Source: Burkholderiales bacterium (GTDB taxonomy: Bacteria; Pseudomonadota; Gammaproteobacteria; Burkholderiales; SG8-39). Taken from it: a stretch of 25,250 nt of DNA. Under the pieces are notes generated by a model. That model ran no database searches and was not told where the DNA came from. It saw only the letters and a program-made list of their open reading frames with translations. Location: positions 1-25,250 of the forward strand of contig JBJMWH010000253.1 of the NCBI GenBank assembly GCA_045810245.1, read 5' to 3'. The position numbers and the translations under genes are program-made. Positions 6,900-25,250 of the stretch are shown piece after piece (positions within the stretch are counted from its first letter, which is position 1; each line of letters starts with the position of its first letter).

Positions 6900-7322
6900 C
6901 GGGTCTGAATCCGATTTTCGACAGTGTCGAGCAGGCGGATGACGGCCCGCTTTCTCGCTTCCCGCGGGGAGAGCAGCCACTGGCCGGCCTGGGAGACATG
7001 GATCCAGAGCGGCGGACTGCGGAAGCCACGGCCATCCAGCGACCGGTCCTTCGAAACCTTGGCCATTCGCAAAGAAGCGTACGCGAACCGCGGCGAGAAA
7101 TCATCTCGCGCCGCGGCATCGATTCAAGTCCTTGCTCCTGCTCGTGTTTCGGCGGCGCCAGCGATGTCAGGCGAGCCCGATGCCTGTCACTCGCCGCGGC
7201 GACGCGGTGTCGACGCCGGTCCGCATTCGATTCCACCGATCGCGACAGGATAAAGGCGCGCTCGGCGATAGTGTCGTGCGCCGTCCCGATCGACAATGCT
7301 GGCGGCGAGAACTTGCAGGTAG

Positions 7323-7357
7323 AAAAAAAGAGGGCACGACCGCTAGTCGTGCCCTCT
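7323..7357 (-). terminator. Rho-independent terminator (minus strand)
   Basis: Perfect 12-bp stem AGAGGGCACGAC / GTCGTGCCCTCT (7329-7340 / 7346-7357) with a 5-nt loop, followed by a U run (plus-strand A run at 7323-7329). Confidence 0.88.
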
Positions 7358-7490
7358 CGTGAAGCTCAAGCGGCGATCAAACTGCGACTACACCTTGTTT
7401 GGCCCTACCGTGGACCGGTCCCTCGGACTGCCTCGTGGATCGGTCTCTCGTGCCGGGGCTGATAACAGCGTGCTGGCCACCCGTTCGTCG
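7323..7490 (-). ncRNA. Putative small RNA or long structured 3'-UTR with repeated short hairpins
   Basis: No convincing ORF. Consecutive short stems have purine-rich loops and recurring CACGAG motifs, ending in a strong terminator. The 5' end is uncertain. Confidence 0.35.
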
Positions 7491-7514
7491 CTGTGTAGAC
7501 TGCGATCTACACAG
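7491..7514. promoter_or_regulatory. Perfect palindrome CTGTGTAGA-N6-TCTACACAG, a candidate response-regulator site
   Basis: 9-bp arms with a 6-nt spacer. The core TGTAGA-N6-TCTACA has the geometry of the GacA box TGTAAG-N6-CTTACA. Confidence 0.45.
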
Positions 7515-7560
7515 GTAGGGATCATGCGTCATTTCGATCCTACACGTCTATAAGCAGGCA

Positions 7561-7576
7561 TAGTCCGGTCGGACTA
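7561..7576. promoter_or_regulatory. Palindrome TAGTCC-N4-GGACTA, a candidate operator
   Basis: Perfect 6-4-6 inverted repeat in intergenic DNA. Confidence 0.35.
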
Positions 7577-7598
7577 GGACGGCGGCGCCGAGCGGCTG

Positions 7599-8009
7599 CT
7601 AGAACGCCATCTTGATGCCGAGCGAGCGGTTTTGCTGGACCACCCCGAGCTCCACCGTCAACACGCCGGCGAGGAACATCTGGCGCCAATCGCTCGGCAA
7701 CGCATGCGCCAACGCGACCGTGCCGACGATGGCGCCGACGAAGTAGGCGTCGACCTTTCCGACGGCGGGCGAAGGCCCGAGGATCGGATTCTGCTCGGAG
7801 AAGCGGTTCGGGTTCTTCGCGATGTGACGCGTCTGGCCCCAGTCGACGGCGAGGGCGGCCACGGCCGCGCCGGCGAGCGCGTAATCGGTTTTTTCCCATG
7901 GGCCGCCGGCGTGGCAGAGCGAGGGGAACAGGACAAAAACCAGAAGCAGAAGCGCGGCTCGCGCGGTGCCGGGCCGCCGACGGGTCGCTGCGACAGGGTG
8001 GTTGTCCAT
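7599..8009 (-). CDS. Secreted/membrane hypothetical protein with a DWGQT...ExNPILG motif
   Basis: 136 aa. Signal-peptide-like LLLLVFVLFPSLCHA, hydrophobic helices, DWGQTRHIAKNP..FSEQNPILG and a C-terminal Phe. The start is uncertain. Confidence 0.75.
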   Translation of the reverse strand: MDNHPVAATRRRPGTARAALLLLVFVLFPSLCHAGGPWEKTDYALAGAAVAALAVDWGQTRHIAKNPNRFSEQNPILGPSPAVGKVDAYFVGAIVGTVALAHALPSDWRQMFLAGVLTVELGVVQQNRSLGIKMAF

Positions 8010-13118: not shown

Positions 13119-13206
13119 ATAAATCGGGTCAGATCAACTTTTCCGCGCCGCATGTTACCCCCGTTACAATCGCGGGCTCCGGAAAAGTTGATCTGACCCC
13201 ATTTAT
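13119..13206. repeat. 27-bp inverted repeat (26/27 identical) filling the corA/aminotransferase intergenic region
   Basis: ATAAATCGGGTCAGATCAACTTTTCCG (13119-13145) and CGGAAAAGTTGATCTGACCCCATTTAT (13180-13206), with a 34-nt spacer containing TACAAT. Confidence 0.85.
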
Positions 13207-19373: not shown

Positions 19374-21380
19374 ATGATCTACGCCGCGACGATTTTTTTG
19401 TCCTCGTTTTTGCTTTTTCTGGTGCAGCCCCTGATCGCGAAGCTGATCCTGCCCTGGTTCGGCGGCAGCGCGGCGGTGTGGACGACCTGCATGCTGTTCT
19501 TTCAGGCACTGCTCCTGGCCGGCTACGGCTATGCTCACCTCCTCGAGAAAAAGCTGGGACGGGGCCGGCTCAAGCCGATCATCCATTCGGCGCTTCTCGC
19601 CGCGGCGGTAGCGACGCTGCCGATCTCTCCGTCGGAGGCGTGGAAGCCGGGCGGCGATGAAGAGCCCATCAGCCGCATCCTGTTCCTCCTCGGCATATCG
19701 GTCGGGCTGCCGTACCTCCTCGTCGCCTCCACCAGCCCGTTGCTCCAGGCCTGGTTCGCGCGCGCCCGGCCGGGCGCGAACCCGTACCGGCTGTTCGCCG
19801 TCTCGAACCTCGCCTCCCTCATCGCGCTCGTGGGCTATCCGTTCCTGGTCGAGCCTTTTCTCGCCGCGCATGAGCAGGTGAAGCTCTGGTCGTGGCTCTT
19901 CGTCGCGTTTGCAGTGCTGTGCGCCGTGGTGGCCTGGCGAACGCCGCGCACCCCGGTCGAAGTCGAAACTGCGCCCGTCGCAGCGCCGGTCGCCCACCAG
20001 CAGGTCGGGCTATGGCTCGCGCTTTCGGCCACCGGCTCGGTCCTTCTGCTCGCGACCACCAATCACCTCACGCAGAACGTCGCCTCGATCCCGCTTCTTT
20101 GGCTCGCGCCCCTCACCCTCTATCTCCTCACCTTCATCATCGCCTTCGAGGGACGCAACTGGTACCGGCCGCAGTTCGTATGGCCGTTCGTACTGGCGTG
20201 GCTCGGTGGAATGGCGTGGCTGCTCGTCGATTCGGATTACCACTACAACCTGCCGCTGCAGCTCGGCATGTTCCTTCCGGGACTCTTCCTGGGCTGCCTC
20301 TTCTGCCACGGCGAGATCTACCGGCTGCGGCCCGAGCCGCGGCAGCTCACCAAGTTCTACCTCGTGGTCTCGGCCGGCGGGGCGCTTGGCGGCCTGTTCG
20401 TGGCAGTGGTCGCGCCGCTAGTGTTCGATGCCTATTACGAGCTCGGCATCGGCATGACGGTGCTCGCGCTGCTCGCGGCTACACGCTTCGCCCAGCTCGG
20501 CCGCTTCCAGAGCCTCGCGAGCCTCGCGGTCCTGATGGGCGTCGCGGCCTGCGCCGCTTACGATGCGTTCTCGTACCACCGCGACGTGCGCGTGTCCGAG
20601 CGCGGGTTCTATGGCGTGCTGCGGGTGAAGGAGTATGGCTCCCCCGGCGAGCAGGGACACCTGCGCCGCCTGGTGCACGGCACCATCATGCACGGCGAGC
20701 AGTACCTCGAGCGGCGCCGGTTCATCACCACCTACTATCAGGAGACCTCGGGCATCGGCGTCGCGATCAAGTCGCGCCAGGGGCACGGCGCGATCCGCGT
20801 CGGCGTCATCGGCCTGGGCACCGGAACCATCGCGGCGTACGGCAGGCCCGGCGACGTCTACCGCTTCTACGACATCGACCCGCGCGTGGTGCAGCTCGCG
20901 AGGCGGGAGTTCAGCTTCCTCGCCGACAGCCCGGCGAAGCTCGAGATCGCGCTGGGCGATGCGCGGCTCACGCTCGAGCGAGAGCCGCCGCAGAACTTCG
21001 ACGTGCTCGCGGTCGACGCCTTCTCGAGCGACGCCATCCCGGTGCATCTCATCACCCGCGAGGCGCTCGGCATCTATCTCAAGCACGTGAAGGCCGACGG
21101 TATCGTGGCCTTCCATGTCTCCAACCGCTTCCTCGACCTCATCCCGGTCGTGGCGCGCATCGCCAAGGAGCAGGGCGCGCATGCGGTGCTGGTGAACGAC
21201 GATCCGGACGACGAGGACGAAAGCCTGCGCTCGCGCAGCGACTGGGTGCTGGTGTCGCGCGACCCGGCCGCGCTCGAGCGCGAGCCGATCGTCGAGGGTG
21301 GCGGCCAGCAAGCCGAGGACCAGCCGAGCTGGCGTACCTGGACCGACGACTACTCCAACCTCATTCAAATCCTGAAATAG
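19374..21380 (+). CDS. Multi-TM membrane protein fused to a spermidine-synthase-like SAM-dependent domain
   Basis: 668 aa. Many N-terminal TM helices; the C-terminal domain has VGVIGLGTGT, GDARLTL and VDAFSSDAIPVHL. Confidence 0.88.
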   Translation: MIYAATIFLSSFLLFLVQPLIAKLILPWFGGSAAVWTTCMLFFQALLLAGYGYAHLLEKKLGRGRLKPIIHSALLAAAVATLPISPSEAWKPGGDEEPISRILFLLGISVGLPYLLVASTSPLLQAWFARARPGANPYRLFAVSNLASLIALVGYPFLVEPFLAAHEQVKLWSWLFVAFAVLCAVVAWRTPRTPVEVETAPVAAPVAHQQVGLWLALSATGSVLLLATTNHLTQNVASIPLLWLAPLTLYLLTFIIAFEGRNWYRPQFVWPFVLAWLGGMAWLLVDSDYHYNLPLQLGMFLPGLFLGCLFCHGEIYRLRPEPRQLTKFYLVVSAGGALGGLFVAVVAPLVFDAYYELGIGMTVLALLAATRFAQLGRFQSLASLAVLMGVAACAAYDAFSYHRDVRVSERGFYGVLRVKEYGSPGEQGHLRRLVHGTIMHGEQYLERRRFITTYYQETSGIGVAIKSRQGHGAIRVGVIGLGTGTIAAYGRPGDVYRFYDIDPRVVQLARREFSFLADSPAKLEIALGDARLTLEREPPQNFDVLAVDAFSSDAIPVHLITREALGIYLKHVKADGIVAFHVSNRFLDLIPVVARIAKEQGAHAVLVNDDPDDEDESLRSRSDWVLVSRDPAALEREPIVEGGGQQAEDQPSWRTWTDDYSNLIQILK

Positions 21381-21440
21381 AAAATCGGGGTCTGACCCGA
21401 AAAAAGAAAATGGTGACAGTCACCATTTCTCTCTGACCCG
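21381..21440. repeat. Cluster of REP-like palindromes
   Basis: AATCGGGGTCTGACCCGA (21383-21400), the perfect AAATGGTGAC-A-GTCACCATTT (21408-21428) and the half-site CTCTGACCCG (21431-21440), between convergent stops. Confidence 0.75.
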
Positions 21441-21444
21441 CGAT

Positions 21445-22623
21445 CTAAGATCCCTGGTCGGGATCCTCGTCTTTGCGCGGCGCCCGGATAAAGTGCTCGC
21501 GTCTAACGCCGAGCCACATGAGCAGCGGACTCGCCACTAGCACCGAAGAGTAGATACCGAAGCAGATCCCGATGGTGAGCGCCAGCGCAAAGTAGTGCAG
21601 CGCCGGGCCACCCCAGAAGAGCATCGTGGTCGCCATTAGTTGCGTGCACGCGTGGGTGATGATGGTCCGCGAAATGACTCCGGTAATCGCCGAATCGATC
21701 ACCTCAGGCGTCGAGGCGCGGCGCATCTTCCTGAAGTTTTCGCGCACGCGATCGAACACGACCACCGATTCATTCACGGAATAGCCCAGGATGGCGAGAA
21801 CTGCGGCGAGCACCGGCAGCGAAAACTCCCACTGGAAGAAAGAGAAGCATCCCAGGATGATGACCACGTCGTGCAGGTTGGCGATGATGGCCGAGAGTCC
21901 GAATCTCCACTCGAAGCGCGCCGCGAGATAAGCGACGATGCCAACAGCAGTGGTCGCCAGCGCCAGGGCACCGTACTCCGCCATCTGGCTTCCGATTTGC
22001 GGACCGACGAACTCAGCGCGCCGCAGTTTGCCGTCGTAGTCGTCGATGACGATTGCCTTGGTGAGCCGCTCAGCCACCACTTGTGGGGTCAGCTCGGGGT
22101 TCGGCTGACGAGGTACCTCGACGACGAACGAACGCTGGTCAGGTTCCTGTTTCACGACTGATTTTTCGAGCCCCAATCCTTCGACGATCTCGCGCAGGCG
22201 TTGCAGGTTTCTCGGTGTTGGATATCGGATATTGAGTCTGGTGGCAGCGCCATCGGACTTGTCGTCGACCTTCCCTCGGAACATCGGGAAGGCCAGCTTG
22301 AACATTGCGTCGTCCGCGACGTTGGCGCTCTTCTCGCCTTTCCTTAGCGGAATGCGAATCAGCACATCCGAGGCTGTTCCATAGTTCTGCACTTGATTGT
22401 CCGGATAGCCCGCTTTGGACAGCGTCGAGCGAAGTCCTTCGACGTCAGCCGGCCGGAGATACTGCACCTCCATGGCCGTGCCCCCAGTGAACTCGATCGA
22501 AAAGTGCAGGCCTCTCGTGGCAAGGAAATAGACCGCCGCGATGAACGTCATCAGGGAGATGACGTTGAAGATCAGCGCATACCGCATGAACGGTATGGTT
22601 CGCCGGATCTTGAAGAACTCCAT
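21445..22623 (-). CDS. secF: Protein translocase subunit SecF, second copy with an extended periplasmic region
   Basis: 392 aa with MEFFKIRRTIPFM, SIEFTGG, EFVGPQIG, ANLHDV, GYSVNESVVVFDRVRENF and SRTIIT. 78 aa longer than the upstream copy. Confidence 0.93.
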   Translation of the reverse strand: MEFFKIRRTIPFMRYALIFNVISLMTFIAAVYFLATRGLHFSIEFTGGTAMEVQYLRPADVEGLRSTLSKAGYPDNQVQNYGTASDVLIRIPLRKGEKSANVADDAMFKLAFPMFRGKVDDKSDGAATRLNIRYPTPRNLQRLREIVEGLGLEKSVVKQEPDQRSFVVEVPRQPNPELTPQVVAERLTKAIVIDDYDGKLRRAEFVGPQIGSQMAEYGALALATTAVGIVAYLAARFEWRFGLSAIIANLHDVVIILGCFSFFQWEFSLPVLAAVLAILGYSVNESVVVFDRVRENFRKMRRASTPEVIDSAITGVISRTIITHACTQLMATTMLFWGGPALHYFALALTIGICFGIYSSVLVASPLLMWLGVRREHFIRAPRKDEDPDQGS

Positions 22624-22630
22624 TGAAAGC

Positions 22631-22675
22631 CGGGGTCAGGCCCGAGAAAGAAGCAATCGGGCTCTGACCCCGATT
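22631..22675. repeat. Inverted pair of REP-like elements between the two secF genes
   Basis: CGGGGTCAGGCCCGA (22631-22645) and AATCGGGCTCTGACCCCGATT (22655-22675) are mutually complementary except for one gap. Confidence 0.75.
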
Positions 22676-22694: not shown

Positions 22695-23639
22695 TCAGAC
22701 GACGGCGCCCTCGTGCTCGTCGCGGCCGCGCTCCTTGCGCGCGGCCTTGACGAACTGCTCCCGGCTCGCGCCAAGCCACATGAGGAGCGGGCTCGCCACC
22801 AGCACCGAGGAGTAGATGCCGAAGCAGATGCCGATGGTGAGCGCGAGCGCGAAGTAGTGCAGCGCCGGGCCGCCGAAGAGGAGCATGGTGGTGACCATCA
22901 TCTGGGTGCACAGGTGGGTGATGATGGTCCGCGAGATCACTCCGGTGATGGCCGAATCGATCACCTCGGTGGTCGAGGCCTTGCGCATCTTGCGGAAGTT
23001 CTCCCGCACCCGGTCGAACACCACCACCGACTCGTTCACCGAGTAGCCCAGCACTGCGAGCACCGCGGCGAGCACCGGCAGCGAGAAGTCCCACTGGAAG
23101 AAGGCAAAGCACCCCAGGATGATGACGACGTCGTGCAGGTTGGCGATGATTGCCGACAAGCCGAAGCGCCACTCGAAGCGGATCCACAGGTACAGCACGA
23201 TGAACACCGCGGTGGTCAGCAGCGCGAGCGCGCCGTACTCGACCAGCTCCTTGCCCACCTGCGGGCCGACGAACTCGACCCGCCGCAGCTCAGCGCTCGC
23301 GTCCTGCTCCTTCAGCGCCGCGTGCACCTTCTGCGAGAGATCCGCGCTCGACTGGTTCTTCTCGAGGTGCAGCCGCAGCAGCACGTCGCGCGACGAGCCG
23401 AAGTTCTGCACCTCGGCCTTGTAGCCCGCCTTGTCGAGCGTCTGGCGGATCTTCTCGATCTCCGCCGGCCGGGAGTACGCGACCTCCATCAGTGTGCCGC
23501 CGGTGAACTCGATCGAGAAATTGAGCCCGCGATGCAGCAGGAAAAACACGGCGGCGAGGAACGTGACGAGCGACAGCACGTTGAACACCAGCGCGTGCCG
23601 CATGAACGGGATGGTGCGCCGGATCTTGAAGAATTCCAT
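22695..23639 (-). CDS. secF: Protein translocase subunit SecF, canonical-length copy
   Basis: 314 aa, directly downstream of secD with a GGAG RBS. All SecF motifs are present. Confidence 0.96.
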   Translation of the reverse strand: MEFFKIRRTIPFMRHALVFNVLSLVTFLAAVFFLLHRGLNFSIEFTGGTLMEVAYSRPAEIEKIRQTLDKAGYKAEVQNFGSSRDVLLRLHLEKNQSSADLSQKVHAALKEQDASAELRRVEFVGPQVGKELVEYGALALLTTAVFIVLYLWIRFEWRFGLSAIIANLHDVVIILGCFAFFQWDFSLPVLAAVLAVLGYSVNESVVVFDRVRENFRKMRKASTTEVIDSAITGVISRTIITHLCTQMMVTTMLLFGGPALHYFALALTIGICFGIYSSVLVASPLLMWLGASREQFVKAARKERGRDEHEGAVV

Positions 23640-23669: not shown

Positions 23670-25250
23670 TCATTTCCAGGCCGTGTTGCCGATGGCGAGT
23701 CGGGCGAGCCGGCGCCGGTGGCCGTAGAGCAGGTTCACCATGGCGCGCGACACCATCACGGCCGAGAACATCGAGGTGAGGATGCCGAGGCAGTGCACCA
23801 CGGCGAAGCCGCGCACCGCGCCCGGCACCATGAGCAGCGACAGCCCGACGATGAAGGTGGTGACGTTGGAGTCGAGGATCGTGGCCCAGGCGCGCTCGTA
23901 CCCCGCCGCGATCGCCGCCTGCGGGGTGGCGCCGCCTCGCAGCTCCTCGCGGATGCGCTCGTTGATGAGCACGTTCGCGTCGATCGCCATGCCGAGCGTG
24001 AGCGCGATGGCCGCGATGCCCGGCAGCGTCAGGGTCGCCTGCAGGAGCGAAAGCAGCGCCACCAGCAAGAGCAGGTTCACGCCGAGCGCAACCGAGGAAA
24101 TCAGCCCGAAGAGCACGTAGTAGACCGACATGAACACCACGATGGCGACGAAGCCCCATTTCGTGGCGTTGAACCCCTTCTCGATGTTGTCGCGCCCCAG
24201 GCTCGGCCCGATGGTGCGCTCCTCGATGATTTCCATCGGTGCCGCGAGCGCACCGGCGCGGATGAGGAGCGCGAGGTTGTTGGTCTCCACCGGCGTGAAC
24301 GAGCCCGTGATCTGGAAGCGGCTGCCGAACTCGCCCTGGATCGTGGCGACCGAGATTGCCTCGCCCTTGCCCTTCTCGAACAGCACGATGGCCATCAGGC
24401 GCTTGAGGTTCTCGCGCGTGGTGTTGCGCATGGCGCGGCCGCCCGCCTGGTCGAGCTCGACAGCCACCGCCGGCCGATGGTCCTGGTCGAAGGTGGCCTG
24501 CGCGCCGACGAACTGGTCGCCGGTGACGATGACCTGCTTCTTGGTCGGGACCTGGCCGACGCTGCCGTCGCGGCGGCGCTCCGGGAACACGTCGGTGCCG
24601 ATGGTGTTGCCGCTACTCATCGCCTGCTCGTCCACCAGGCGCACCTCCAGCGTCGCCGTGCGGCCCAGGATCTCCTTGGCGCGCGCGATGTCCTGGACGC
24701 CGGGCAGCTGCACCACGATGCGATCGGCACCCTGCTGCTGGATGACCGGCTCGGCCACGCCGAGCTCGTTGACCCGATTGTGCAGGGTGCTGATGTTCTG
24801 CTGGACCGCCGTCTCCTGGACGCGCTTGAGCACCTCGGGGCGCAGCGTGCCCACGAGCAGCAGGTCCTGGCCGTCGTCGCGCTCGGCGAGCGCGAGGTCG
24901 GGGATGCTCGCGAGGATGGCGCCGCGAGCCGCCTCGCGCGTGGCCGGGTCGCGGAAGCGCACCCGGATCGCCTGCCCTTCGCGCGTCACGCCACCGTGCC
25001 GGATGTTCTTCTCGCGCAACTGGCTGCGCACGTCGGCCGCGAGGTTCTCGATGCGCTTGAGGCTCGCCGCGGGCATGTCGATCTGCAGGAGGAAGTGCAC
25101 GCCGCCGCGCAGGTCGAGGCCCAGGTACATGGGCAGCGCATGGATCGCGGCCAGCCAGTTCGGCGAGGCCGGCAGCAGATTGAGCGAGACGGTGTAGGTC
25201 TTGTCGGACGGATCGGGATTGAGCGCCGTGTCGAGGATGTCTCTCGCCTT
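23670..25250 (-). CDS. secD: Protein translocase subunit SecD (5'-truncated by the window)
   Basis: The frame is open from the window edge. LGLDLRGGVHF, LGVAEPVIQQQGADRIVVQLPG, EERTIGPSLG and GMAIDANVLINERIREE. Confidence 0.97.
   Translation of the reverse strand, partial: KARDILDTALNPDPSDKTYTVSLNLLPASPNWLAAIHALPMYLGLDLRGGVHFLLQIDMPAASLKRIENLAADVRSQLREKNIRHGGVTREGQAIRVRFRDPATREAARGAILASIPDLALAERDDGQDLLLVGTLRPEVLKRVQETAVQQNISTLHNRVNELGVAEPVIQQQGADRIVVQLPGVQDIARAKEILGRTATLEVRLVDEQAMSSGNTIGTDVFPERRRDGSVGQVPTKKQVIVTGDQFVGAQATFDQDHRPAVAVELDQAGGRAMRNTTRENLKRLMAIVLFEKGKGEAISVATIQGEFGSRFQITGSFTPVETNNLALLIRAGALAAPMEIIEERTIGPSLGRDNIEKGFNATKWGFVAIVVFMSVYYVLFGLISSVALGVNLLLLVALLSLLQATLTLPGIAAIALTLGMAIDANVLINERIREELRGGATPQAAIAAGYERAWATILDSNVTTFIVGLSLLMVPGAVRGFAVVHCLGILTSMFSAVMVSRAMVNLLYGHRRRLARLAIGNTAWK

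Follow-up and report, generated by a model that had tools for sequence, protein, structure and literature searches.

This locus raises the question of what a second, longer SecF is doing directly behind an ordinary one, and where its additional residues come from. The window (the whole stretch of 25,250 nucleotides analysed here) belongs to a 3.68 Mb assembly from an uncultured soil Burkholderiales MAG group. On its minus strand, secD (23670-25250, with the 5' end cut at the window edge; Pfam SecD_1st, SecDF_P1_head, and SecD_SecF_C) is followed by secF1 (22695-23639), which encodes an ordinary SecF of 314 aa (TIGR00966 at 304 bits, profile positions 1-279). Then come a 71-nt spacer, secF2 (21445-22623), and an element at 21385-21429 formed by an intrinsic-terminator-like hairpin (21407-21429) and a REP-like palindrome (21385-21400). 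The open reading frames of the secD-secF1-secF2 row are intact. SecF1 and the SecF encoded in a neighbouring MAG are 97% identical, and the secF2 product, with its 392 aa, is 78 aa longer than SecF1. One copy of secD was found when the genome was searched, the MAG being 72%-complete and split into 602 contigs. An earlier note had located the peculiar part of secF2 at 22030-22480, and these coordinates are right: on the minus-strand ORF they cover aa 49-198 out of 392.

In the public annotation, secF2 (P0001) is 306 aa long, begins at an internal GTG at V87 (window 22365), and lacks TM1 and half of P4. Because the N-termini are conserved across all relatives, the real start is the ATG at 22623. 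Convergent with secF2, on the plus strand (19374-21380), lies a gene for a 668-aa multi-pass membrane protein, which has no Pfam family at E ≤ 0.001 and is conserved 3' of secF in two genomes of close relatives (G018 and G007).

SecF2 clearly belongs to the SecF clade. It reaches 289.6 bits on TIGR00966 (transloc_SecF), against a cut-off of 160, in two stretches that both use profile positions 40-92. The Pfam scan found Sec_GG at aa 32-55 (E 1.9e-6) and SecD_SecF_C starting at aa 197, at profile position 12. In the AlphaFold2 (AF2) model, the six transmembrane (TM) helices span aa 12-37, 209-236, 239-263, 269-299, 305-337, and 340-370, and the P4 loop is periplasmic, between TM1 and TM2. TM1, followed by the Sec_GG motif, is encoded at 22513-22590, and the TM2-TM6 core (aa 209-370) at 21514-21999, both on the minus strand. 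BLASTP of SecF2 against SecF1 returned two HSPs, one joining aa 1-105 of SecF2 to 1-104 of SecF1 (64% identity) and the other aa 91-390 to 10-308 (59% identity). Since the two HSPs overlap, the periplasmic segment of SecF1 aligns to two places in SecF2. Compared to canonical SecF (TIGR00966; E. coli 5MG3_F; Thermus SecDF 3AQP/5YHF), SecF2 shares the six TM helices, Sec_GG, the P4 loop, an acid at the esAspX position (E285), esArgXI (R319), and the operon linkage to secD. Conversely, it carries an 81-residue extra domain inside P4, and its gene is a second secF behind the ordinary one, with a lower codon bias.

The essential charged residues of TM10 and TM11 in Thermus SecDF are D637 and R671 (PMC5974789). 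In the alignment with this protein, D637 (esAspX) corresponds to E285 of SecF2, within an NES motif (codon 21769-21771), and R671 (esArgXI) to R319, within an SRT motif (codon 21667-21669). E285 and R319 are conserved in SecF1, in SecF2, and in nearly all relatives (alignment A2); in all of these, the D637 position is Glu, not Asp, and thus still acidic. The earlier note had read the motifs ANLHDV and FDRVRENF as including the Asp and Arg of the ion pathway. Both motifs are present and conserved, but the essential residues map elsewhere: D252 of ANLHDV lies in the helix before, and FDRVRENF is the cytoplasmic end of TM10.

Sequence comparisons support the origin of the extra ~80 aa of SecF2 by duplication of P4. 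The direct comparison between the two segments is weak taken alone, with 18% identity over 73 aa in BLASTP of segment A against segment B (E 0.008). The 7/30 identities reported earlier between two 30-mers were reproduced by hand count, and that short alignment is indeed free of gaps; the same was claimed for the whole repeat, but the BLASTP alignment of the full segments has 2 gaps over the 73 aa. The P4 of SecF1 matches segment A (aa 41-127) with 57% identity (E 2e-24) and segment B (aa 121-210) with 24% identity over 83 aa (E 2e-9), and ordinary 314-aa SecFs from seven other genomes of the genus align to the full-length segment B at 25-29%. Furthermore, an HMM of P4 alone, trained on 34 ordinary SecFs, matches every long SecF twice and co-linearly, the second match having an E-value of 1e-7 to 1e-13; in SecF2 the two matches cover aa 46-107 (E 1.3e-24) and aa 128-209 (E 1.3e-10). 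The proposal of a SecF paralog with a duplicated P4 is thus borne out by third-party matches and by the double P4-HMM hits. As a control, segment B was rescored without the conserved LRRxEFVGPQ linker and compared with 1,500 shuffles. The six family members obtained 7.3-16.6 bits, where the shuffle maximum was 9.2 and the 99th percentile 4.3: 6/6 were above the 99th percentile, 4/6 above the maximum, and 2/6 below it.

How the two repeats are folded was assessed on AF2 models. The full-length model, computed from a 34-sequence alignment, has a mean pLDDT of 89.5 (95-97 across the loop), and the model of the periplasmic region alone, whose alignment contained the six long-family sequences only, has a pLDDT of 90.7 and a pTM of 0.84; across these alignments just 4-6 sequences cover the insert. 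Both models present two complete beta-alpha-beta-beta-alpha-beta units, the first with strands 48-54, 77-81, 83-92, and 118-121 and helices 61-70 and 99-114, the second with strands 127-133, 156-159, 165-171, and 199-206 and helices 140-149 and 180-195. Two P4-like folds had been expected from the sequence, and two full units are predicted, but not side by side. The models indicate a strand-swapped layout, composed of a P4 base (aa 46-114 and 196-206) and a permuted insert (aa 115-195).

The strand swap was deduced from the residue ranges of the AF2 models that align to solved structures. The periplasmic model, in which residue n is SecF2 residue n+39, was searched with VIA-align against 48,161 PDB representatives. 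The top match was the solved SecDF P4 2RRN (Z 7.8, rmsd 3.0, 77/92 aligned, 23% identity), a Z of ~7-8 being in a range common for small alpha/beta folds. This and other single domains of 75-92 residues align across model residues 5-168, with ~70-77 residues aligned. A second set of single ferredoxin-like or ACT-like domains aligns to the contiguous model block 76-156 (Z 7-7.7). The layout is read as strand-swapped because the former targets span 5-168 while the latter fit 76-156. The ACT-like matches reflect a shared fold class only, and the Pfam scan of SecF2 found no ACT family. When the full-length model was superposed on the SecF half of Thermus SecDF (5YHF), 294 residues were aligned (chain 434-735; Z 24.1); this accounts for the TM bundle and the canonical P4, and leaves over ~85-90 residues, including the insert.

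In detail, the first part of the base (aa 46-114; 22282-22488, minus strand) would consist of beta1-alpha1-beta2-beta3-alpha2 of repeat A, as delimited by the first P4-HMM match, AF2, and the 2RRN alignment. The putative circularly permuted P4-like domain (aa 115-195; 22039-22281, minus strand), delimited by AF2 and the structure matches, would be made of beta4 of repeat A plus beta1-alpha1-beta2-beta3-alpha2 of repeat B, with segment B (aa 128-208) forming most of it. The last base strand (aa 196-206, the KLRRAEFV region; 22006-22038, minus strand) leads into TM2; it is kept in ordinary SecFs, and Pfam SecD_SecF_C covers it from aa 197. Within the insert region, conservation is strongest at L110, A111, P113, F115, and G117, where the chain passes from the base into the insert, and at R144, which in repeat B is the equivalent of the invariant R65. 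With the insert as query, the ESM Atlas returned weak SecF-fragment clusters at 0.75-0.77, a lead only.

The repeats could instead form two independent P4-like domains placed side by side, a plain tandem P4 with no strand swap. Indeed, they are complete and co-linear in sequence, the linker from beta4 of A to beta1 of B, 5 residues long, allows both topologies, and the top Foldseek matches are tandem ferredoxin-like pairs; in that search, run with the isolated periplasmic model, the tandem matches had low TM scores and none was found at E ≤ 0.001. We consider this arrangement unlikely, since in the models the single-domain targets aligning over 5-168 and over 76-156 would fit the swapped layout only. 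Moreover, the first five elements of A and the last strand of B are kept with ordinary SecF and the middle evolves fast, as fits a base plus an insert.

The base-plus-insert layout has a counterpart in SecD. In the structure search, 74 residues of Thermus P1 (3AQO, chain 42-262) were matched to the discontiguous base (model 9-167) at Z 7.5. In the Pfam matches, the last residue of the P1 head of SecD is aa 337, and SecD_SecF_C takes over at aa 339 with profile position 13; in SecF2, the insert extends to ~aa 195, and aa 197 carries profile position 12. Because the Pfam boundaries and the 3AQO alignment agree, the insert is predicted to occupy a position pseudo-symmetric to the P1 head of SecD, just before the last base strand. 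SecD P1 and the SecF2 loop are alike in the ferredoxin-like base, in the extra domain looped out directly before its last strand, and in the boundary at the matching SecD_SecF_C profile position. They differ in that the SecF2 insert is a permuted P4 copy and not a P1-head homolog, is smaller (81 aa against ~110-140 aa for the head), and is only possibly mobile. The RND porter subdomains (AcrB PN1/PN2 and PC1/PC2) are likewise repeated beta-alpha-beta-beta-alpha-beta modules in periplasmic loops of the same superfamily, and AcrB-type pumps are the next-best structural matches to the SecF2 model; however, their kinship with the insert is seen in fold class only, and SecF2 is of the SecF clade.

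The long secF was found in further datasets. A 10.3-kb JGI metagenome contig (L018) carries tgt, secD (611 aa), secF (314 aa), and a long secF (389 aa); the upstream tgt-secD-secF is shared with the window, whereas the downstream gene is different. In L018, the long secF and an alpha/beta-hydrolase gene (6902-7771) lie on one strand, and the hydrolase gene overlaps the secF stop. Other members are P0002 (390 aa), P0004 (389 aa), and P0013 (394 aa), together with the fragments P0003 and P0005, from different datasets. In total, the long SecF has at least seven independent sightings, and full-length open frames of 389-394 aa are present in at least four independent sequences. Comparison of the window with L018 gives secF2 a dN/dS of 0.145 overall (dS ~1.3), with 0.20 for the N-terminus, 0.23 for repeat A, 0.35 for repeat B, and 0.05 for the TM core; for comparison, secF1 has 0.27 and secD 0.23. 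These values support an intact gene under purifying selection, and the dN/dS and artefact checks that the earlier note had put forward are answered by the ratio of 0.145 and by the same gene order in the independent contig.

A non-functional, decaying duplicate might be suspected from a third-position GC content (GC3) below that of the neighbouring genes, from the absence of secF2 in the closest relatives, and from the internal start picked by the gene caller. Nevertheless, decay is very improbable, given full-length frames in at least four independent sequences, a dN/dS that at dS ~1.3 is 0.145 overall and falls to 0.05 in the TM core, and the retention of the essential residues. Similarly, the fragmentation of the MAG (602 contigs) could lead one to see in the tandem copy an artefact of assembly or binning. 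The chance of this is negligible: the independent JGI contig has the same order, secF1 and secF2 have only 73% nucleotide identity with a longest exact run of 23 nt, and insert homologs are present in other datasets.

The long-SecF family is very rare. With aa 88-208 as the query, an exhaustive HMMER search of 1.84 billion representative proteins retrieved 3. The insert was found in 0/70 genomes of other species of the genus, in 0/16 genomes of the same order, and in 0/200 high-quality genomes of the order (117 genera, a tally that includes the unpublished genome G096), where all strong SecF matches span 837-882 nt; with the insert as query against genome contigs, no related loci were found. 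The survey for long SecFs suggested earlier thus gave a very rare family, with the secD-secF-long secF order recurring in L018. The literature searched contained no SecF-only paralog or P4 insertion. Among the candidates examined, L019 and L020 were rejected as relatives, being 30-aa chance matches inside a DUF4139 protein, and L079 was rejected as a long SecF, being an ordinary secF cut by a contig end.

Two other cases of doubling were observed. In the 200-genome set, a second copy was found in G112 only, as a fused whole-SecDF paralog: a short SecDF-type 595-aa frame on a separate contig (G112:C13:31410-33149, L128), in a genome with a normal secD-secF beside it. This is of the general Vibrio kind, in which the whole SecDF has a paralog. 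Within the same genus, G009 has two ordinary-length secF genes on different contigs (G009:C23 and G009:C37), each beside a contig end, which may reflect a mixture of strains in the MAG or a genuine second copy.

The history of the long SecF appears composite. In the tree on the non-insert columns, the long SecFs of the window, L018, and P0002 form a clade (support 100/99) that is sister to all ordinary SecFs of the genus. The window's SecF1 and the SecF of G018 and G007 are almost the same sequence; the SecF1 of L018 lies in another subclade. The insert of P0004 (10.7-kb ENA contig) is homologous to that of the window (39% identity, E 2.7e-19), but the non-insert part of P0004 groups with SecFs of other families of the order (77% to that of G030). 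This grouping and the AU test, which rejects the monophyly of the four long SecFs (p 0.001), do not support one simple origin for the long gene as a whole. The history is mosaic because the inserts are homologous though the non-insert parts are non-monophyletic. On these sequences, P0004 would imply old recombination or conversion, or else that the long gene moved from one family to another. Recent conversion of one window copy by the other (secF1 and secF2) was rejected (best 90-nt window 90% identical, longest exact run 23-29 nt). A recent foreign origin of secF2, which its GC3 might suggest, is weakened: the value is ~0.76 in both diverged loci (dS ~1.3), at about the 20th percentile of the genome.

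Among close relatives, secF2 is patchy. G018 and G007 lack it, with 93-94% nucleotide identity to the window across secD-secF1 and 87-88% along the aligned stretch from the 3' part of secF into the downstream DNA. The empty site of G007 contains two adjacent REP-like palindromes (CGGGGTCTGACCCCG), and degenerate copies flank secF2 in the window, where REP-like palindromes lie at 21385-21400, 22655-22675, and 13126-13200. In the assembly, the palindrome GGGGTC[AT]GACCCC occurs in 24 strict and 109 loose copies, against ~0.5 expected. Because the empty sites of G018 and G007 carry REP-like palindromes and the element is dispersed, secF2 was probably gained or lost among these relatives by recombination at the flanking REP-like palindromes.

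Palindromes of this kind also lie before the start of secF2. Two degenerate REP-like palindromes form an RNA hairpin of ~16 bp at 22630-22673 (minus strand; the pair is homologous to that of the G007 empty site), with a folding energy of -39.1 kcal/mol and a z of -3.0, which ends ~7 nt before the secF2 ATG. No clear Shine-Dalgarno was detected in the 71-nt spacer. GC3 is ~0.76 for secF2 in both loci (0.755 in the window), 0.96 for secF1, and 0.93-0.95 for secD. The low codon bias, together with a stable hairpin and no clear Shine-Dalgarno ahead of the start, suggests from sequence that the expression of secF2 is lower than that of secF1, or conditional. The suggestion is soft because the GC3 of secF2, crudely estimated, stands only at the ~20th percentile of the genome's long frames.

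The earlier note had drawn a parallel with Vibrio, where whole secD-secF pairs with different ion coupling (SecDF1 and SecDF2) are swapped under the control of the monitoring leader peptide VemP (PMC11470409, PMC5449182). The parallel is loose. The two systems share more than one version of SecDF motor subunits per genome, with a presumed conditional use. However, here only secF is doubled, a single secD having been found in the genome and likewise in L018, SecF1 and SecF2 do not differ in their ion-pathway residues, and the secF1-secF2 spacer is filled by the hairpin and holds no ORF for a leader or arrest peptide.

On the whole, we favour, with a probability of roughly 0.55, the reading that secF2 is a functional second SecF subunit gene, i.e., a P4-duplicated secF copy with a strand-swapped base plus insert, whose product is an isoform sharing SecD. 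A copy of secF would have undergone tandem duplication of its P4-coding segment, giving secF2. As modelled, the repeats would then exchange their last strand, so that the first five elements of A and the last strand of B rebuild a normal P4 base where P4 sits in the solved SecDF, and the 81 residues between (aa 115-195) would form a separate, circularly permuted ferredoxin-like domain. SecF2 would take the place of SecF1 beside the single SecD in a fraction of the complexes. Such a pairing as an alternative subunit is plausible from the genomic linkage to the single secD. The base would retain the sheet between the P1 base and P4, and the insert would project beside the P1 head. This would yield a SecDF isoform, driven by protons, that has a second projection into the periplasm; the projection may either offer a binding surface for substrates or chaperones or modulate the swing of the P1 head.

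A different role would be that of a modulatory or dominant-negative subunit, whose insert, placed beside the P1 head, restrains or gates the F/I swing and thereby tunes SecDF or shuts it conditionally. The models, in which the insert would emerge at the site pseudo-symmetric to the P1 head, and the signals of low expression are in line with it, and the fully conserved TM core implies that SecF2 should compete for SecD. The purifying selection on the insert (dN/dS 0.23-0.35), however, fits a binding role equally, and we regard a purely regulatory SecF2 as quite unlikely. Returning to the SecD-sharing isoform, the periplasmic domains of SecDF have been implicated in SurA recruitment (PMC9987972). 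A more specific version, which we advance tentatively as a possibility, is that the single SecD with either SecF makes two export-motor isoforms, the long one having a "P4 head", possibly mobile and made by duplication and strand swap opposite the P1 head of SecD, that would recruit particular substrates, SurA-like chaperones, or the outer-membrane machinery.

SecF2 is a rare natural variant of the protein-export motor, and the long-SecF family to which it belongs is tiny and known from uncultured soil bacteria only. How the periplasmic domains of SecDF couple proton flow to the pulling of preproteins is only partly understood, and P4 has so far been seen as a passive companion of the P1 base. 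Maintained by selection and encoded beside an ordinary SecF with the same SecD, SecF2 amounts to a natural experiment on P4 geometry. The internal tandem duplication with its predicted strand swap would be one concrete route by which RND-type loops gain modules and, if the proposed reading is true, SecF2 would offer a natural example of RND-superfamily periplasmic loops growing by duplication of their own ferredoxin-like module.
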